Virus record (IMG/VR): IMGVR_UViG_3300045994_000055
Coordinates: 70,352-134,351 of that record
Reading direction: 5' to 3' (one strand)
Source of the DNA: a virus
DNA length: 64,000 bases
In this document: in pieces, positions 12,331 through 34,700 of the stretch
How positions within the stretch are numbered: position 1 is the stretch's first letter
How the letters are laid out: each line of letters opens with the position of its first letter
Program-made: the position numbers and the translations under genes
The notes under the pieces: generated by a model
Told to the model about the DNA's origin: nothing
Databases searched by the model: none
Seen by the model: the letters and a program-made list of their open reading frames with translations, nothing else

Positions 12331-14238
12331 ATGGAACAAGACAAACACGTATGGTCAGCTGAGACCATGGTAGCAAACACTGCTAAACCACGACGTAAAA
12401 ACGTAAATCCCGTAATATACGAACACAACGTTACTAGGAAAACTAGGCTTACTCTAGTTATGATGGGTTGTTGGGGCGTATACTTTGCACCTTATAACAT
12501 CGCTAGGTTATCTGCCTTAACTAAAGAAGCAGGCTATGCTACTAGATCCTTTGATTTCAACGTAGACTTGTATACCACATTCAAATCTAATGGCTTAGAC
12601 AAAGCGTGGGACTCTATCAATTACTATTGGTGGAACGATGGCAACTACCAAGACAAATTGCACGATGCGGCATTGCCTCATTATGCTGCTTACTTAGACA
12701 AGATTGTGGCATCAAATCCTACCGTTGTTGGATTTAGCATTTACGACACAAACAAAGTACCTACGTATTGGATGATACGTGAACTTAAGAAACGCTTGCC
12801 ATTTGTGCTAGTTATTGCAGGTGGACCATCCTGCCACAATCCAGAGTATGAGGCAATAGACGAAATTGATTACTACGTTGTTGGTGAGGGAGAGCAAATC
12901 CTGTTAGACATGCTTGAGAACTTTGAAAACAACGTACTGCCAGAGACTAAGAAACTAGGTACCTCGTACAGTGATTCCCGCGTTGATATTGATAGCTTGC
13001 CTTTCCCTGACTACAGCGAATTTGATTTGTCTTTGTATACAAACGGTACGGGCGTTAGCGCAGAGATCAGCCGCGGCTGTGTGGCTAAGTGTAGCTTCTG
13101 CACAGAGACTTGGTTCTGGAAGTTTAGAGACCGCCAAGCTAACCGCATATTGGACGAAGTAGAAGACCAAATTAAGAACTACGGTATCACCTATGTATGG
13201 TTTATTGATAGCTTAGTTAACGGCAATCTCAAAGAGTTGCGCACGTTTGCAAAAGGCGCCATTGAGAAGCAGTTCAATATTAGTTGGATGGGGTATGTAC
13301 GCTGTGACGGGCGTATGGATGCAGATTACTTCAAAGACTTAAAGGACAGCGGCGCCCACTATCTAAGCTTTGGCGTTGAAAGCGGCTCACAAAAAGTACT
13401 GGACTTAATGAAGAAGAAGGTTATGGTCTCTGAGATAGATGCCAACATGCGCGATTGTAAAAACGCAGGCATTACTGTGCATGTTAACTGGATAGTAGGC
13501 TTTCCTAATGAGAACATCAAAGCACACAATGACAGCTTGATACTACTGTGGAACAACCGTAACTACATGGATCTAATAAGCACGGGCATGACATTGGGCG
13601 ATAGCAGAGGAACAGACTTTGAGTTCAACCGAGAGCAATACAGCATGAGCAATTGGGACGACAAGTTTTGGGGATGGTGGTATTCTAAAGATCTGAGTAA
13701 TACAAAAGTGCACAGGCTTGTGAGAATGAAACTGCTTAATATCTGGCTAGACATTTGCTATAATAACGGCGTGTTATTCAATACTCAGCGCCGCGACATT
13801 GACTCGCACTATACACTATCTAAGCTAAAGTTAGTTAACCCGCCAGACAATATTACGCTAGATGATTTTGACTTCAACATTATCAAAACTGATCTTGGTA
13901 ATTTTGCTGACACGCTAATGAATGAGATATGGGCATTTTTACGGCTAATGTATAGAGTAGCTGGTGGCTTTGAGATTACACTGCGTTTCAACCGCGAGGA
14001 AGACTTAGTCGCATTTGGTGACGTTATGATGGTTGACCGTTACGATGCAACATACAACTTTAGTATAACTGATGACGGTGAGTGGAATGCAGACTTTGTA
14101 TTTGCGTTGCAAGACAACGACGAATGGCGCTTACCTATACACCCAGACAAAAGCTTTACACATCACTATGTAGGAACGGGGCAGTGGACCAATGCCCAAA
14201 CTGCCCTGAACAAAAAGATAATATGGATTCAATCTTAA
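12331..14238 (+). CDS. Cobalamin-binding radical SAM protein
   Basis: VVGFS...IAGGP...VVGEGE B12 domain, SRGCVAKCSFC cluster motif, SFGVESGSQKVL, IVGFPNE. Confidence 0.9.
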   Translation: MEQDKHVWSAETMVANTAKPRRKNVNPVIYEHNVTRKTRLTLVMMGCWGVYFAPYNIARLSALTKEAGYATRSFDFNVDLYTTFKSNGLDKAWDSINYYWWNDGNYQDKLHDAALPHYAAYLDKIVASNPTVVGFSIYDTNKVPTYWMIRELKKRLPFVLVIAGGPSCHNPEYEAIDEIDYYVVGEGEQILLDMLENFENNVLPETKKLGTSYSDSRVDIDSLPFPDYSEFDLSLYTNGTGVSAEISRGCVAKCSFCTETWFWKFRDRQANRILDEVEDQIKNYGITYVWFIDSLVNGNLKELRTFAKGAIEKQFNISWMGYVRCDGRMDADYFKDLKDSGAHYLSFGVESGSQKVLDLMKKKVMVSEIDANMRDCKNAGITVHVNWIVGFPNENIKAHNDSLILLWNNRNYMDLISTGMTLGDSRGTDFEFNREQYSMSNWDDKFWGWWYSKDLSNTKVHRLVRMKLLNIWLDICYNNGVLFNTQRRDIDSHYTLSKLKLVNPPDNITLDDFDFNIIKTDLGNFADTLMNEIWAFLRLMYRVAGGFEITLRFNREEDLVAFGDVMMVDRYDATYNFSITDDGEWNADFVFALQDNDEWRLPIHPDKSFTHHYVGTGQWTNAQTALNKKIIWIQS

Positions 14239-14396
14239 GTATACTTCAAAAGTAAGAAGCTAACAAGCTCATCCTTCTCTACTGTGATCTCGTACCCGTT
14301 AACTAATTTGGTAAACGGGTAGTGCTTAATCTTATTCTCTTGCAAATATTTAAGCACTGCGGTTACGTCACTCTTCGGAATCGTCAGACTCATCAT
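14235..14396 (-). CDS. Small hypothetical protein
   Basis: ORF overlapping the end of the upstream gene; ends LVSFLLLKYT. Confidence 0.5.
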   Translation of the reverse strand: MMSLTIPKSDVTAVLKYLQENKIKHYPFTKLVNGYEITVEKDELVSFLLLKYT

Positions 14397-14940
14397 AATA
14401 CTCATCCTCGTCAAAGTAGTCAACGTTCTTAGTAACCGCCTCATCATACATTTTATAGTACGGCTCGTTCGGCATCAACTCACGCAAGTCCTTTACAGTG
14501 AGCAACAGTGCAGTCAACTCATCCTTCTTGTGTACATCAGTTACATAGAAAGTAGTAGTGCAAACACCACCAATAGTTTTTATGGGCCCATGCTTAACCT
14601 CTAAGCTTTGTAACGAGTCCTGCAACTGCTTGCCCCACTTAGTAATAACACGGGTAATGCCCTTAGCGGTATTGCGCAAAACACTCTTATCGTGATTCGT
14701 CGCAGAACGTATTGTCGCCTCGTTATTGTCGTCTATCGTCAAGTGACAGTCCTTGAACTTAAAGCTACCTTTGGTGTGCGGGTTATCCTTAGTCTCTTTA
14801 GTGCTCCAAGGCATGTTACATTCAACGTGCTCGACGTAGTATGTTTTGCCTTTAGTTTTGATAACCCACATTGGGATAGTGGGGTCTTCTAAGTGCTTCT
14901 TGTTGAAGTGAAACACAACTTCTTTACAAACCATTTCCAT
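14368..14940 (-). CDS. Hypothetical protein
   Basis: 190 aa ORF with AAGGAG RBS, directly downstream of the Pth2-like gene, acidic tail. Confidence 0.75.
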   Translation of the reverse strand: MEMVCKEVVFHFNKKHLEDPTIPMWVIKTKGKTYYVEHVECNMPWSTKETKDNPHTKGSFKFKDCHLTIDDNNEATIRSATNHDKSVLRNTAKGITRVITKWGKQLQDSLQSLEVKHGPIKTIGGVCTTTFYVTDVHKKDELTALLLTVKDLRELMPNEPYYKMYDEAVTKNVDYFDEDEYYDESDDSEE

Positions 14941-14941
14941 T

Positions 14942-15316
14942 TTATTCTCCTTTATCCATTATGCTGTATGCTTTGCTTGCACGGAATTTGTACAAACTAA
15001 ACTTCTTGAAAATTTCCTTTTGCTCTTCGTAGTAGATAGGTTCAGTCGTAAGACTTGTAAACCCTGTCTCATAGTCAGGCTCGTGGAACATGTGAAATTT
15101 AATGCCGTTGTTGATCAAGTGATCACCGGCCTTCATCAACGCTGCTTCGTTCTTAGCCTCTAGTAATACTAGGAACGTGTTTGTTGTTGGATTTCGATTC
15201 TTGAAATCCCGCCCGGATTCCTGTGCGGAATGGGCAGCTTGCACAATTTGAGTCTCGATTGGTAAGTCCGAGCGAATAAAGGTGTAGCAGTAGTGTTTGC
15301 CGTCTATCTATTTCAT
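14942..15316 (-). CDS. Pth2-like peptidyl-tRNA hydrolase with in-frame TAG at codon 3 (readthrough needed)
   Basis: AAGGAG 8 nt before ATG AAA TAG ATA...; downstream YTFIRSDL...QIVQAAH...LVLL...FHEPD...TSLTTEP matches the PTH2-family pattern; the GTG start at 15244 would lose the first conserved strand. Confidence 0.75.
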
Positions 15317-15345
15317 TTTGATTTCTCCTTGGTTAAAATGATCGT

Positions 15346-15397
15346 AAAAAAGCCCGTACGAGAACTCTTCCTCTAATTGGAAGCTCTGGTCCGGGCT
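15346..15397 (-). terminator. Long interrupted hairpin plus U tract in the leader of the Pth2-like gene (attenuator candidate)
   Basis: Minus strand AGCCCG-GAC-CAGAGC-TTCC-AATTAGA-GGAA-GA-GTTCT-CGTA-CGGGCT-TTTTT. Confidence 0.75.
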
Positions 15398-15415
15398 AAA
15401 AGGGTAATAGTTAAT

Positions 15416-15434
15416 CTATTGCATTATGTATTTA
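15416..15434 (-). promoter_or_regulatory. Late promoter with leaderless amber minigene ATG CAA TAG
   Basis: TAAATA-cata-ATG CAA TAG; ATG at 15424 is in frame with the Pth2-like gene. Confidence 0.65.
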
Positions 15435-15445
15435 GTCTAGCACAA

Positions 15446-16330
15446 TTACGCGAAGATTTCAAGTGCTGTGCCGCATTCTGTACAAAATTTTGCATTCGCT
15501 TTGTTCATTTTGCCGCAAGTAGTGCACTTTGGCTTTGCTTTTACTGTAACTGGTAGCAGCACGGGCTTATTGTCAGGGGTTTCACCCAACAGTTTAAGCA
15601 CAATGGAATGCTTTTCTGGCAGCACTGGGAACCAGCTTGCAGTAGCAAACTTTTGATCGCTCTTGGAACCAGCAACGGTGATGCCAGCATCGTTATAGCT
15701 TACGTTCTGTGCTTGCGCAGTCACATTGTTCAACGATGCATTGGTAACGGATGCGGAAGCACCAGACGCAAGTACACTGCGAGCAATGCTCGACTTGAAT
15801 GGTACTGGCTCATTGCTGCTGAAGGTGGCGTCACCGCTGCTCCATTGTGCATTGTTAACTTGGGAGATGGTGTTACCTAGTCCCTTGAAAATCATTCCAT
15901 CTTGGCGCAAGCCAGTATGTTGCTGCTTCCACACGTTTTGTTGGTAGTCCCAAATCGTAGTTCCAGCGAATGTAATTGGTAGGTGTTCGAACTGATACGA
16001 GATGTTGATGATACCGTCTTCGATACCAATGCCCTTATGTGCTTCGATTTGTGCAGTGCGCTCAATGAATTTGAACTTATTGCCTGCTGAGAGGTTGCCG
16101 TTCTTGATCCAGCGTTCCAAATCAATGGTTTGTCCTGCGAGCAGCACTAAGCCGCCAGGACAGACATCAGTACCGTCAAGCGTAATGTTTACGATGGCGC
16201 GGACCGTGTTGAGATTTTTAAGAACTATGGAGTATTCTGAGCCGAATGGGATATAAACTGTATCCTTGAACTCACGTAAGATTTTGCCGTTAGCTTTTAG
16301 GCTCGCAACGAGCTTTTGATTGTACATCAT
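15446..16330 (-). CDS. Conserved-type phage protein with C-terminal zinc ribbon
   Basis: C-terminal CTTCG...KFCTECG; AGGA RBS. Confidence 0.8.
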   Translation of the reverse strand: MMYNQKLVASLKANGKILREFKDTVYIPFGSEYSIVLKNLNTVRAIVNITLDGTDVCPGGLVLLAGQTIDLERWIKNGNLSAGNKFKFIERTAQIEAHKGIGIEDGIINISYQFEHLPITFAGTTIWDYQQNVWKQQHTGLRQDGMIFKGLGNTISQVNNAQWSSGDATFSSNEPVPFKSSIARSVLASGASASVTNASLNNVTAQAQNVSYNDAGITVAGSKSDQKFATASWFPVLPEKHSIVLKLLGETPDNKPVLLPVTVKAKPKCTTCGKMNKANAKFCTECGTALEIFA

Positions 16331-16812: not shown

Positions 16813-16889
16813 TGGTGCGTTATCCCGGATTCGAACCGAGCACCGTCGAGTTTAGAAGTCGCCGCTCTAACCAAATGAGCTAATAACGC
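16813..16889 (-). tRNA. tRNA with anticodon CUA (probable amber suppressor), CCA encoded
   Basis: Acceptor GCGTTAT/ATAACGC, A73, CCA; D stem GCTC/GAGC; T arm CTCGG-TTCGAAT-CCGGG; anticodon loop TT-CTA-AA; only 3 of 5 anticodon stem pairs are Watson-Crick. Confidence 0.8.
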
Positions 16890-16926: not shown

Positions 16927-17021
16927 CATAAATGGCTAAATATCTGGTTCGCTCTTAAATGAGAGCTCGTGCGAGTAGCCACTCCGCGGGGCTTAGAACG
17001 CTCACAACAAAGGAAAATAAA

Positions 17022-17492
17022 ATGGCAAAAGGTATTAAAGTAGCAAATCAAGCACCAGCAGCACCATTGGGCAGCACAGTAGACGGCTTAGTCAGCGCAG
17101 ACCAAGGTCAAGCGTCTGGTTTTGGTGGTACGGGTGGCGTTAGTAACACAGTTAACGGCAAGGGCGTTAAGACAATAGACGTACAATACAAGACATTGGC
17201 TGGTGTAGCAGTTGCACACGGCTTCGTTATCAATCAAAAGGGTTCTGCAAAGTTCTTAGTTGATGATTCCGCAGCAGCAGGTACTCATATCACTGTAGTT
17301 CAACTTGTAAACAAAGCCGCTGGCGCATTAGCAGCAGGCGAAGCAAGCATTGCTTGTTACGACACAGCAAGCGCACCTTTCTACGCTCGTCGTATCAGCA
17401 CAAAGCACGTTTATGACTTCGCAGGCAACAAGTTTATGTACAAGGTTAACACCCCAGCTACATCAGCTTACGCTAACGTAGCATCTTACTAA
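17022..17492 (+). CDS. Putative abundant virion structural protein
   Basis: Late promoter at ~16937, structured leader, AAGGA RBS, MCP-like codon usage, own terminator. Confidence 0.65.
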   Translation: MAKGIKVANQAPAAPLGSTVDGLVSADQGQASGFGGTGGVSNTVNGKGVKTIDVQYKTLAGVAVAHGFVINQKGSAKFLVDDSAAAGTHITVVQLVNKAAGALAAGEASIACYDTASAPFYARRISTKHVYDFAGNKFMYKVNTPATSAYANVASY

Positions 17493-31759: not shown

Positions 31760-34700
31760 ATGGCAAATGGTAATTTTATAGTACAAAATGGCTTGCAAGT
31801 TGGTAACTTAGTTATCAGCGCATCCACTGGCGATATCACCACAACAGGTAACGTTACAGTTACTGGCGGTGGATCAATTAACGTAGACGCGATCGGCGTC
31901 AGCAGCATTGCTAAAAACGATTCAAGTTTAACAATTAACGATACGGGCACTGGCTCGACAATCGTCGTAGCACTTGACGGTGTTACACGCTCAACAACAG
32001 ATGCGGCAGGTATTAATTTACCATCCGGCGAACGTTACGCAATCAATGGCGCAAGCGTACTAAGCGCAACAGCATTGGGTACATCAGTTACAGATTCTAG
32101 CTTAACATCTGTTGGTACATTAGGTAGCTTAGGCGTAACCGGTACTGTTACTGCTGGCGGTTTTGCTGGTCCAGTAACTGGTAACGCAAGCACAGCAACA
32201 GCTTTGGCAACACCACGTGCAATTAACGGTGTAAATTTCGACGGTACAGCACCTATCACAGTAACAGCAGCCGCTGGCACATTAACTGGTGCAACATTGG
32301 CTGCTGGCGTTACAGCTTCTAGCTTAACATCTGTTGGTACATTAGGTAGCTTAGGAGTAACTGGTACTGTTACCGCTGGCGGTTTTGCTGGTCCGGTAAC
32401 TGGTAACGCAAGCACAGCGACAACGCTACAAACAGCACGTAACATCAATGGCGTAAGCTTTAACGGTTCTGCAGATGTAACAGTAACAGCTAATGCAGCA
32501 ACCTTATCTGGTACTTCATTAAACAGTACAGTTACAGCTTCTAGTTTGACATCCGTTGGTACACTAGGTTCTCTTGGTGTTACTGGTACGGTTACTGCTG
32601 GTAGCTTTGCTGGTCCTTTAACTGGCGCAGTAACAGGAAATGCTTCTACTGCAACAGCCTTGGCAACACCACGTGCAATTAATGGCATAAACTTTGACGG
32701 CACTGCTCCTATCACAGTAACAGCGGCAGCAGGTACATTAACTGGTGCAACTCTTGCAGCAGGTGTTACATCATCTAGCTTAACATCCGTTGGTACTTTG
32801 GGTAGTTTAGGCGTAACTGGTACTGTAACCGCTGGTGCGTTCTCTGGCCCATTAACTGGCAATGCTTCTACAGCAACTACATTAGCTACCGCACGTAACA
32901 TCAATGGTGTTTCGTTCAATGGCTCTGCAGATATTACTGTGACTGCTAATGCACAGACATTGTCTAGCACAATATTAAATCCAACTGTAGTAACATCCAG
33001 CTTGACAACTGTTGGTACTTTGGGTTCGTTAGGTGTTACAGGTACTGTAACTGCTGGTGCGTTCTCTGGACCATTAACTGGTGCAGTAACTGGTAACGCA
33101 AGTACAGCAACTACATTGCAAACAGCACGTAACATCAATGGCGTTTCGTTTAACGGTTCCGCAGATGTAACAGTAACAGCGGCAGCAGGAACATTATCTG
33201 GTGCTACTTTAGCAGCAGGTGTAACAGCTTCTAGCTTAACTTCCGTTGGTACATTGGGCTCGTTAGCAGTAACTGGTGCAGCTACAGCAGGTAGTCATGT
33301 ATCTGGTAATTTAACAATGTCTGGTGACAGCATTACTAGCACTAACTCAACAATTACTATTGACCCAGCTACTGCTGGTGCAGGTGGTTTAGTTGTTATT
33401 GCTGGTAACTTGCAAGTTAACGGTACAACTACTACGATCAATTCAACAGCAGTTACAACAGCTGACTTGGCGATTGAAGTAGCGACTAACGCAGTTAATG
33501 CGGCAGCAGCAAACGGTGGTGGTTTAATTGTTAATGCAGCTTTTGCTAATGCAACAATGCTTTATGCAAACGCCACAGATTCTTGGGACTTCAACAAGAA
33601 CGTTACAGCGACATTGCGTACAGCGGCTCAGCCAAACATCACAAGCGTTGGTACATTAACATCTCTAGCGGTAACAGGTGCTATTACTGGTGCTTCGTTT
33701 ACTGGTGCGACAAGTGGTACACATACAGGTGCGGTAGTTGGTAATGCTTCTACAGCTACAGCATTGCAAACACCACGTGCTATTAACGGCGTAAACTTTG
33801 ACGGCTCTGCGGCTATCACTGTAACAGCGGCAGCAGGAACATTATCTGGTGCTACTTTAGCAGCAGGCGTTACGGCTTCTAGCTTAACATCGGTTGGTAC
33901 AATTACTTCCGGTACTTGGTCTGGTGCTTTTGGTGCAGTAAGCGGTGCTAACTTAACATCCTTAACAGGTGCTAACGTTACTGGTACAGTAGCTTCCGCA
34001 ACATCGGCAACAAATGCAACCAACACTGGTATCACTGATGATGCAGCAACAGCAACAGCAGTTAACTTGACATGGGTTACATCTAACACTGGTAACTTAC
34101 CACAGAAGACAACTTCTACTAAGTTAACATTCGTTCCATCCACTGGTGTGCTAAGTGCTACTCAGTTCACTGGTTCTGGCGCAGGCTTAACAAGCATTCC
34201 TGGTGCTAACGTTACTGGTACAGTAGCTTCTGCTACTACTGCTGGTTCTGCAACAACAGCAGGTTCTGCAACTACTGCAACAACAGCGACTTTTGTAACT
34301 GGCTTAACAGCAGCCAACGTATCCGCAGTTATTGGTACTGTAACTGGCTTCCCAACATTGAACCAAAATACTACAGGCTCTGCAGGTTCTGCACCAGCTG
34401 GTACATTAACTGGTACAACATTGGCAGCAGGTGTAACAGCTTCTAGCTTAACATCCGTTGGTACAATTACAGCTGGTACATGGTCTGGTTCGTTCGGTGC
34501 AGTAAGCGGTGCTAACTTGACAAGCATTACTGGTGCTAACGTTACTGGTACTGTTGCTTCTGCAACAAACGCAACAACAGCTGGCGGCTTGGCGGTAACG
34601 TCTGCAGCAACTGCTTCGACAGTAATGGCTCGTGATGCAACTGGTTATGCTTATGCAGTTTACTACAATGCGACTGGTTCGTTCCCATTAACAGCCGGAG

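Follow-up and report, generated by a model that had tools for sequence, protein, structure and literature searches.

A candidate phage operon with amber codons in its leader and at its gene start, and a phage tRNA(CUA) that may open it

The locus and its sequence

The stretch of DNA analysed here (64,000 nt, positions 70,352 to 134,351 of the virus record IMGVR_UViG_3300045994_000055, hereafter the window) is the final part of a 134-kb virus record in IMG/VR. On its minus strand lies a small operon in which the gene for a protein resembling peptidyl-tRNA hydrolase 2 (Pth2) has an amber codon, TAG, as its third codon. A second TAG lies in a short leader upstream of this gene and is followed by a hairpin, and a phage tRNA gene with the anticodon CUA, that of an amber suppressor, is found farther upstream. 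As the 134-kb record was only 38% complete according to CheckV, its source is a large phage. The main features of the locus, including its open reading frames (ORFs), with protein lengths in amino acids (aa), were as follows.

15429..15434, minus strand: TAAATA, late-promoter-like, 4 nt before the leader ATG (sequence)
15416..15424, minus strand: leader mini-ORF ATG CAA TAG, without a Shine-Dalgarno sequence; gate 1 (sequence)
15317..15415, minus strand: read-through leader frame of 33 sense codons, spanning the hairpin and the Shine-Dalgarno sequence (sequence)
15345..15397, minus strand: intrinsic-terminator-like hairpin (15397-15351) and T-run (15350-15345), proposed attenuator (fold, -20.9 kcal/mol)
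15325..15330, minus strand: Shine-Dalgarno sequence AAGGAG, with an 8-nt spacer to the gene ATG (sequence)
15308..15316, minus strand: gene start ATG AAA TAG, amber at codon 3; gate 2 (sequence)
14942..15316, minus strand: Pth2-like protein P0001, 124 aa if the TAG is read, open to the TAA at 14944-14942
14368..14940, minus strand: 190-aa protein starting MEMVCKEVVFHFNKK, its start 1 nt after the Pth2-like stop (ORF list)
16813..16889, minus strand: phage tRNA with anticodon CUA and encoded CCA (ARAGORN; Rfam tRNA, 51.5 bits against a gathering threshold of 29)

An earlier reading of the same DNA, hereafter the original prediction, had described TAAATA, 4 nt, ATG CAA TAG, 33 sense codons and a hairpin with a T-run, and after these AAGGAG, ATG AAA TAG and a frame open to 14942. 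All of these were found on the letters. It had also described a shared frame and a common stop context, and both ATGs, both TAGs and the Pth2-like ORF do lie in one frame, with both stops in the context AA-TAG-AT. The hairpin, with the stem AGCCCGG...CGGGCT, begins 18 nt past the first TAG. The gap between the T-run and the Shine-Dalgarno sequence is 15 nt, which leaves no space for a separate promoter, and transcripts of the operon must therefore cross the hairpin. The sequence ATGNNNTAG had 65 copies on the two strands of the 134-kb record, or about 0.03 per 130 nt of one strand; seven copies fell in crude intergenic DNA, among them the two gate sites.

Identical DNA was present in metagenome runs from a river, a wetland and a pond. 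A single contig from the independent run X5 spanned 14306-15709, covering both TAGs, and had no differences from the window. The contigs of X6 and X7 confirmed the first TAG only; both broke between 15249 and 15384. The letters of the locus are no assembly error. A megablast search with 6 kb of the locus against GenBank phages gave no match.

Genetic code

In crAss-like and Lak phages that use genetic code 15, TAG is read as Gln with the aid of the phages' own suppressor tRNA. If code 15 applied throughout the present genome, TAG would be a sense codon everywhere and the Pth2-like gene one of many recoded genes. Three things speak for this. The phage does encode a tRNA(CUA), TAG terminated only 5 of the 122 crude ORFs of the record (TAA 93, TGA 24), and with 38% completeness the recoded genes could sit in the missing part. 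However, the many genes with an in-frame TAG that mark code-15 phages were not found: no other ORF split at a TAG was detected within the 134 kb, the effect being confined to one gene and its leader. Opening TAG gave no larger gain in long ORFs than opening TGA, and in the flanks of the related loci a TAG-specific gain was likewise absent. By these counts the phage genome is not TAG-recoded and has kept the standard code, and recoding throughout is very improbable. The tRNA(CUA) seems to act as a dedicated signal and not as a means of recoding the genome.

Amber codons at the starts of Pth2-like genes

An alignment-based scan of viral contigs yielded 63 Pth2-like loci (numbered with the prefix L), to which one metagenome locus, L065, and the window (WIN) were added. 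L065 was the only locus returned by a metagenome scan, and a scan of viral contigs with the single protein gave no match. An ATG followed by zero to three codons and a TAG preceded the domain in 20 of the 63 loci. Together with L065 and the window this makes 22 gated loci, at 35-54% identity, with the TAG at codon 2-5. A Shine-Dalgarno-like purine run lay a short way upstream of the gated ATG in most of the 22, being weak or absent in L012, L038, L043 and L052. The Pth2-like genes of Pectobacterium phage CBB (L152, KU574722.1, ~286003) and Serratia phage BF (L153, KY630187.1, ~286083) both had TAG at codon 4; the former is annotated as truncated (CBB_406) and the latter is unannotated.

Taking this family together with that of the 190-aa protein (see below), there were 73 distinct gated starts. 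TAG was codon 3 in 61 of them, the next base was a purine in 72, and the codon after TAG was ATT in 44. The sense codon between ATG and TAG varied and was not conserved. A purine following UAG favours suppression. At L036:5725-6020 the fourth codon of a Pth2-like gene was TGA, and a tRNA(UCA) lay immediately upstream, stop and anticodon having switched together; a GTG follows this TGA and could be an alternative start.

Database homologues of the Pth2-like protein start with 'M-x-Q-I...' or at an internal V or M, and both forms occurred inside one 90% cluster. The clusters P0002, P0003 and P0005 held two calls per gene, a 100-aa form from an internal V/M start and a 124-aa Q form. Because every relative whose DNA was read carried TAG at the Q position, the Q of the databases is very probably TAG as called by gene callers capable of code 15. 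On short contigs, such calls keep the stop out of view in searches at the protein level. One close relative counts against a programmed gate: codon 3 of P0002 (94% identical, from a 206-kb contig of the Joint Genome Institute, JGI) encodes Lys. Of the first 13 residues of this protein eight were changed, against a nearly unchanged remainder, a pattern that resembles an exchange of the 5′ end.

This Lys would also suit a gene in decay, in which the TAGs are nonsense mutations or sequencing errors; TAG is one base from CAG or AAG, and the table-11 call of this gene in the database (P0303, the JGI call of the window, 100 aa) begins at GTG 15244. A start at that GTG would cost the fold its first strand and its R-x-D-L motif. 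Decay or error is nonetheless scarcely credible, given that the independent contig carried identical letters, that TAG lay near the start in 22 Pth2-like loci, 75 partner-family loci and the complete genomes of cultured phages, that the remaining ORF was intact and conserved, and that the context after the TAG was conserved as well. The original prediction had taken homologues with sense codons as the sign of decay. When homologues were examined at gate 2, TAG was found in the 22 loci, with P0002 as the exception. Kept across 35-54% identity and going with a phage tRNA(CUA), the codon-3 TAG is very likely a conserved, programmed gate, as far as comparative data can tell.

The 190-aa partner family

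The gene downstream of the Pth2-like gene encodes a 190-aa protein with 829 homologues, for which no Pfam or PHROG family was matched. Counts for this partner family refer to 80 viral loci (L154-L233) kept from at least 330. A TAG near the start, mostly at codon 3, was present in 75 of the 80 loci, and in 56 of these 75 a tRNA(CUA) lay upstream on the same strand within 3 kb. A Pth2-like gene was found near none of the 75 gated partner genes. The order Pth2-like gene, then 190-aa gene, directly or closely, was seen in the window, L002, L003 and L065, and L004 matched in part. The 190-aa family may, from these counts, be the main client of the suppressor tRNAs. In L166, L170, L188, L193, L208, L210 and L214 the tRNA(CUA) ended about 28-30 nt before the gated partner ATG, and the tRNA gene thus occupied the position of the leader and terminator of the window.

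A structural model of the 190-aa protein had a predicted local distance difference test (pLDDT) score of 86.5. Foldseek gave no match to it at E<=0.001, and the Atlas had no usable hit. With VIA-align the best match was to the tail of a CCA-adding enzyme, at a Z of 7.5 that lies within the range of common arrangements, followed by ACT/RRM-like structures. The model thus resembled no known structure clearly: its C-terminal half looks ACT/RRM-like, and the N-terminal half was assigned to no fold.

The suppressor tRNA

The tRNA(CUA) gene lies 1.5 kb upstream of the leader on the same strand, with a sigma-70-like site at 16926-16898, and its anticodon loop reads UUCUAAA. Its nearest relatives were other module-linked tRNA(CUA) genes and not any sense isotype, and no isotype could be assigned to it by similarity. 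A tRNA(CUA) was found within 6 kb in 36 of the 63 Pth2-like loci. Among the 22 gated Pth2-like loci, 17 had one in their record: inside the locus in 14 (WIN, L002, L012, L017, L018, L020, L032, L037, L038, L043, L046, L052, L053 and L065) and elsewhere in the record in three (L003, L011 and L027). For L005 (a whole 4.8-kb contig), L028 and L045 the search covered the locus only. The tRNA(CUA) is the presumed key to both gates.

The leader and its terminator

The closest relatives with DNA available, L002, L005 and L065, each had an ATG-NNN-TAG-AT without a Shine-Dalgarno sequence 93-107 nt upstream of the gene start. In all three a strong hairpin and a T-run came after the leader TAG, with some 30 nt left between their end and the gene ATG. 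Of the remaining 18 gated Pth2-like loci, L046 alone had a clear terminator, at a different distance. A terminator whose end is about 30 nt from the ATG was, within the Pth2-like set, exclusive to the four loci with a leader mini-ORF.

A scan of viral contigs for the pattern of the whole leader architecture returned 30 stretches. These were the contigs of L002 and L005, two new loci (L111 and L113) and 26 stretches without a long ORF. When the pattern was varied by one base, none of 26 stretches preceded a module gene, against 4 of 30 for the true pattern. In L111 and L113 the partner gene was TAG-gated and preceded by the same leader and terminator, and a tRNA(CUA) lay upstream. Five more leaders came from the partner-family loci (L195, L200, L206, L209 and L217). 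In L217 the order was tRNA, 15 nt, TAAATA, leader, terminator, TAA, Shine-Dalgarno sequence and ATG GCC TAG. In L195/L200 and L206/L209 the gene had no TAG of its own, and the leader TAG and terminator were kept.

In total, 11 loci from 8 lineages had the leader cassette, in which an ATG-(1-2 codons)-TAG without a Shine-Dalgarno sequence, 85-120 nt upstream of the gene start, is followed by a terminator. The leader TAG lay 13-40 nt from the hairpin. The hairpins ranged from -14.9 to -20.9 kcal/mol, or to -20.6 kcal/mol outside the window, and had unrelated stems, all with a T-run, and they ended 26-34 nt before the ATG. A predicted intrinsic terminator thus lay between the leader start and the gene in all 11 loci, as an attenuator would have it. 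The leader frame was open across the entire hairpin in 7 of the 8 lineages; the other two frames were so in 5 of 16 cases. The comparison of upstream regions that the original prediction had proposed turned out in its favour: ATG-NNN-TAG and the terminator recurred in L002, L005, L065 and the partner loci. The single frame through both gates held in three of the four Pth2-like leaders.

The original prediction had also named TAAATA as a late promoter core, and this agrees with its distribution in the genome. At most 60 nt separated 30 of the 81 copies of TAAATA from a downstream gene start, against 12-14% for four control hexamers, and the same was true of 5 of the 6 copies of TATAAATA. The usual distance of TAAATA to the start codon was 17-30 nt. 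Over the whole record TAAATA, ATAAATA and TATAAATA were enriched 17-30 nt upstream of gene starts. This enrichment of TAAATA-type motifs suggests late promoters of the T4 type in this phage. In the leaders, TAAATA or TATAAT stood 4-8 nt before the ATG in 7 of the 8 lineages, and we infer that TAAATA is here the promoter of a leaderless or nearly leaderless transcript.

A simple terminator scan missed the hairpin of the window because its loop and bulges exceed the rules of that scan, and a fold-based scan detected it. The 146-nt leader region as a whole folded no better than shuffled sequences (z -1.15), the local hairpin alone being strong. A MAFFT alignment of four leaders yielded nothing useful with RNAalifold, since the hairpins differ in length and sequence. 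No alternative antiterminator hairpin was identified in the leader folds, and Rfam gave no known leader or riboswitch family at the locus.

Proposed mechanism and alternatives

We lean towards an operon under a double amber lock, with the tRNA(CUA) of the phage as its key. Transcription would start from the late-type promoter TAAATA, at or beside AUG CAA UAG. If release factor 1 (RF1) wins at this UAG, the ribosome would leave 18 nt before the hairpin, the terminator would form and transcription would end before the genes. Reading of the UAG by the suppressor tRNA would instead let the ribosome cross the hairpin RNA and hinder its folding, and RNA polymerase would continue. The second AUG, led by a Shine-Dalgarno sequence in AUG AAA UAG, would then yield the Pth2-like protein only if the codon-3 UAG is read as well. 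This second step is strongly supported by the comparison of gated loci. At the leader, we infer antitermination driven by the ribosome. The comparisons that the original prediction had proposed speak for its two-step gate, with antitermination as the presumed part. The start of the 190-aa gene lies 1 nt past the Pth2-like stop; its translation is therefore probably coupled, passing the gate on to it. With two UAG locks, output should rise steeply with the active suppressor tRNA relative to RF1. Production of the small operon thus probably requires the phage's UAG-reading tRNA to override the stop.

The distance between the leader stop and the hairpin agrees with published data. In PMC4824070, a stop codon 28 bp before the terminator tR2 gave about 90% termination and one 5 bp before it gave less than 10%, and folding of the hairpin is said to need about 10-15 nt of free RNA. 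By these distances, a ribosome released 18 nt before the hairpin should allow termination, and one that has read on should obstruct it.

Several observations weigh against the double lock. In PMC4824070, too, translation lowered the efficiency of a terminator in the first 100 bp of an ORF by only about 10%. This small effect is explained there by the first ribosome rarely catching the polymerase unless the latter pauses, as in pyrBI. The hairpin of the window ends about 75 nt past the leader AUG, within this early range, and no pause site is known there. The leader AUG has no Shine-Dalgarno sequence, and its translation hinges on the presumed transcription start near it. The hairpin lies 49 nt past the stop of the upstream gene and could simply be the terminator of that gene. 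In L206/L209 the leader frame, that of the eighth lineage, stops within the hairpin, and in L065, L111, L113 and L217 the leader is out of frame with the gene. No terminator was found in the 170 nt upstream in 64 of the 73 analysable gated partner loci, and 47 of these 64 also had no mini-ORF. Several of the apparent mini-ORFs among the remaining partner loci were the 5′ end of a tRNA gene. The leader cassette is, on these counts, a minority variant of the module. As to the key, the anticodon stem of the tRNA(CUA) has the mismatches G.A and C.C at its two ends, with three Watson-Crick pairs left, and no tRNA(CUA) was found in the fragments with L004 (84 kb) and L007 (14.6 kb).

Some of these points would suit a simpler arrangement in which only the codon-3 TAG works. 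The leader would then be an untranslated promoter or initially transcribed motif, or the remnant of a duplicated start, and the hairpin a leaky terminator of the upstream gene. A Shine-Dalgarno sequence is missing before the leader ATG in 11 of 11 loci, the hairpin follows the stop of the zinc-ribbon gene in the window and a tRNA gene in L002, L113 and L217, the leader 15-mer is a near-repeat of the gene start in L002 and L065, early terminators are barely affected by ribosomes according to PMC4824070, and most gated loci have no leader. However, ATG-NNN-TAG was kept in 8 lineages despite changing flanks and stems, and the leader frame was open over the hairpin far more often than the other frames, as noted above. 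The pairs L195/L200 and L206/L209 retained the leader TAG and terminator without a TAG in the gene, and the lack of room for a promoter after the T-run again means that transcripts must cross the hairpin. An idle leader is an unlikely reading, although one to be taken seriously.

The leader could also act on translation, with read-through ribosomes crossing the hairpin and the Shine-Dalgarno sequence and the hairpin serving mainly as an element of RNA stability or processing. The route would be coupling or re-initiation at a TAA by the Shine-Dalgarno sequence in L065, L111, L113 and L217, where the leader frame ends 5-20 nt before the ATG, or an N-terminal fusion in WIN, L002, L005 and L195, where it enters the gene in frame. 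Those frame ends and fusions fit such a role. However, the hairpin was followed by a T-run in 11 of 11 loci, as terminators need, and it ended 26-34 nt before the ATG, leaving the Shine-Dalgarno sequence uncovered. The start codon was touched only by a weak A-U helix, and the z of the whole region was the unremarkable value given above. We consider a purely translational role improbable. Two further candidates were dropped. Bypassing of the gene-60 type would meet the same UAG again at its landing site, and a target-site duplication by an inserted terminator would place the Shine-Dalgarno sequence inside the supposed insert.

With these alternatives weighed, a terminator-based first gate is somewhat favoured by the comparative data. 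The comparative case for it is supported by the 11 loci, in which the same leader would serve either client gene.

The Pth2-like protein

The original prediction had called the product a Pth2-like hydrolase and had proposed a profile search. The read-through protein matched the Pfam PTH2 family (PF01981) with an E of 0.0012; at 19.5 bits the match fell short of the cut-off of 23. Its homologue P0017 bears a precomputed PF01981 match, and a profile of the family found the peptidyl-tRNA hydrolase 24bt_A among Protein Data Bank sequences at an E of 3e-05. The family comprised 863 representative clusters at E<=0.001. An AlphaFold2 model built with 86 sequences had a pLDDT of 91.6, and Foldseek ranks 1-11 were all Pth2 (among them 2zv3, 1q7s, 3erj, 1wn2, 1xty and 1rlk), with template modelling (TM) scores of 0.62-0.75 and E values down to 5.5e-06. 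The predicted structure is that of the Pth2 alpha/beta fold; the identity thus held for the fold and fell short of the Pfam cut-off.

The phage protein and Pth2 (PF01981; 2zv3, 1q7s, 3erj, 1wn2 and 1xty) share the fold, at a TM score of 0.63-0.75 for the top hits, and the motif R-x-D-L ... Q-x-x-H-A. R15, Q26, H29 and E79 are invariant in the family. E79 aligns with the Asp that precedes A-G-x-T in Pth2. Unlike Pth2, the phage protein scores below the Pfam cut-off, and the Gly-Lys stretch of 24bt and 2zv3 stands opposite a gap in the profile alignment. This segment presumably holds the catalytic Lys, the roles of Lys and Asp being taken by us from work on S. solfataricus. Since the family profile has a gap in place of the Gly-Lys segment, activity as a hydrolase cannot be taken for granted, and this too counts against the proposed explanation.

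Neighbouring genes and other features

Two further ORFs adjoin the operon.

15446..16330, minus strand: 294-aa protein with a C-terminal zinc ribbon (ORF list; Pfam Zn_Ribbon_1, E 3e-07)
14235..14447, minus strand: 70-aa ORF, sharing 80 nt with the end of the 190-aa gene, a doubtful gene (ORF list only)

The 294-aa zinc-ribbon gene is the upstream neighbour of the leader, its stop lying 22 nt before the leader ATG, and a homologue 56% identical occupies the same position in L065. Together with a 130-aa ORF it fills the space between the tRNA(CUA) gene and the leader. The 70-aa ORF had no family match, and BLASTP found no homologue of it in L065 or L002. The original prediction had placed two downstream ORFs under the gate; of these, the 190-aa gene belongs to a conserved family that is gated elsewhere, and the 70-aa ORF is doubtful.

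Two other signals were recorded in the window. On the plus strand at 34169-34266, ARAGORN called a 98-nt tRNA-Val(AAC) with its anticodon at position 40, an unusual length that may reflect an insertion or a false prediction. At 16951-17024 on the plus strand, Rfam gave a weak match to 'freshwater-2 RNA' (30.6 bits against a gathering threshold of 49.9, E 0.044). It coincides with the start of a plus-strand gene at 16959-17492, across from the promoter region of the tRNA.

Comparison with known systems

Leaders of the pyrBI type, and likewise those of trp, his and phe, combine a promoter-proximal short ORF with an intrinsic terminator and a leader frame that runs through it, as the present leader would. 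Whether the hairpin forms would in each case depend on the point at which the leader ribosome halts. In pyrBI the ribosome follows the polymerase through the attenuator hairpin. In contrast to these systems, the phage leader would sense read-through of a UAG at codon 3 or 4 and not the supply of nucleotides or of a charged sense tRNA. It also has no Shine-Dalgarno sequence, is apparently leaderless and has no antiterminator that we could find, and the second UAG repeats the test. Coupling in pyrBI relies on polymerase pausing, according to PMC4824070.

With the code-15 phages (crAss-like and Lak) the system has in common a phage tRNA(CUA) and an in-frame TAG that blocks a gene until the tRNA acts. 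Unlike in those phages, the code here is the standard one, the TAGs are limited to one leader and one gene start, with a fixed codon and context, and one TAG is coupled to a terminator. Borges et al. are said to have proposed in 2022 that suppressor-tRNA recoding times phage gene expression.

An early in-frame stop is also found in prfB, the gene of release factor 2, which is autoregulated through a UGA that needs a +1 frameshift and so senses its own product. In both cases the yield of a translation-related protein is set by competition at the stop. The phage case differs in that it would be plain read-through by a separate tRNA, with no sign that the product acts at the stop. The bar minigenes of lambda, AUG AUA UAA, release peptidyl-tRNA, the substrate of peptidyl-tRNA hydrolase, and they share with the phage gates a two-codon ORF followed by a stop. 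In the phage, however, the sense codon is variable, the frame runs on into a conserved protein and a matching suppressor tRNA is encoded nearby; no toxicity is implied.

The components are therefore of known kinds: leader-peptide attenuation, suppressor tRNAs with in-frame TAGs, and early-stop sensors such as prfB. The original prediction knew of no description of this architecture, and our search of the full-text literature, which did not cover supplementary tables, likewise found none of the module or of a leader keyed to a terminator. As far as the searches show, the combination is new in print: a standard-code phage with a tRNA that has one leader and one or two gene starts as its only apparent targets, and a terminator keyed to read-through.

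Suppressor tRNAs have been reported in large phages before. In the paper on the jumbo phage XacN1 (PMC5852040), no targets were found for its suppressor tRNA, and the papers on Atu_ph07 and RsoM2USA guess that the targets are many. We suggest, tentatively and as something possible though not the expected outcome, that the suppressor tRNAs of many standard-code large phages are dedicated signals whose sole targets are the UAGs at the starts of the module of Pth2-like and 190-aa genes. In some lineages the leader would supply a second check, making the whole a natural AND gate with two inputs, one acting on transcription and one on translation, which would report the balance between tRNA function and RF1. 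If this is true, the gate would report, for example, the state of the cell after a host defence that cleaves tRNAs, or during the take-over of translation. The module supplies a concrete, conserved target for the suppressor tRNAs of jumbo phages, and its target genes are missing or truncated in annotations because the TAG close to the start gates them. The leader, small and modular, is a possible part for synthetic circuits that depend on amber suppression, and it would be, as far as the searches show, the first natural transcription attenuator with stop-codon read-through as its input. For the phages themselves, two proteins are singled out, a divergent Pth2 fold and the large 190-aa family, the need for which would be tied to suppressor activity.

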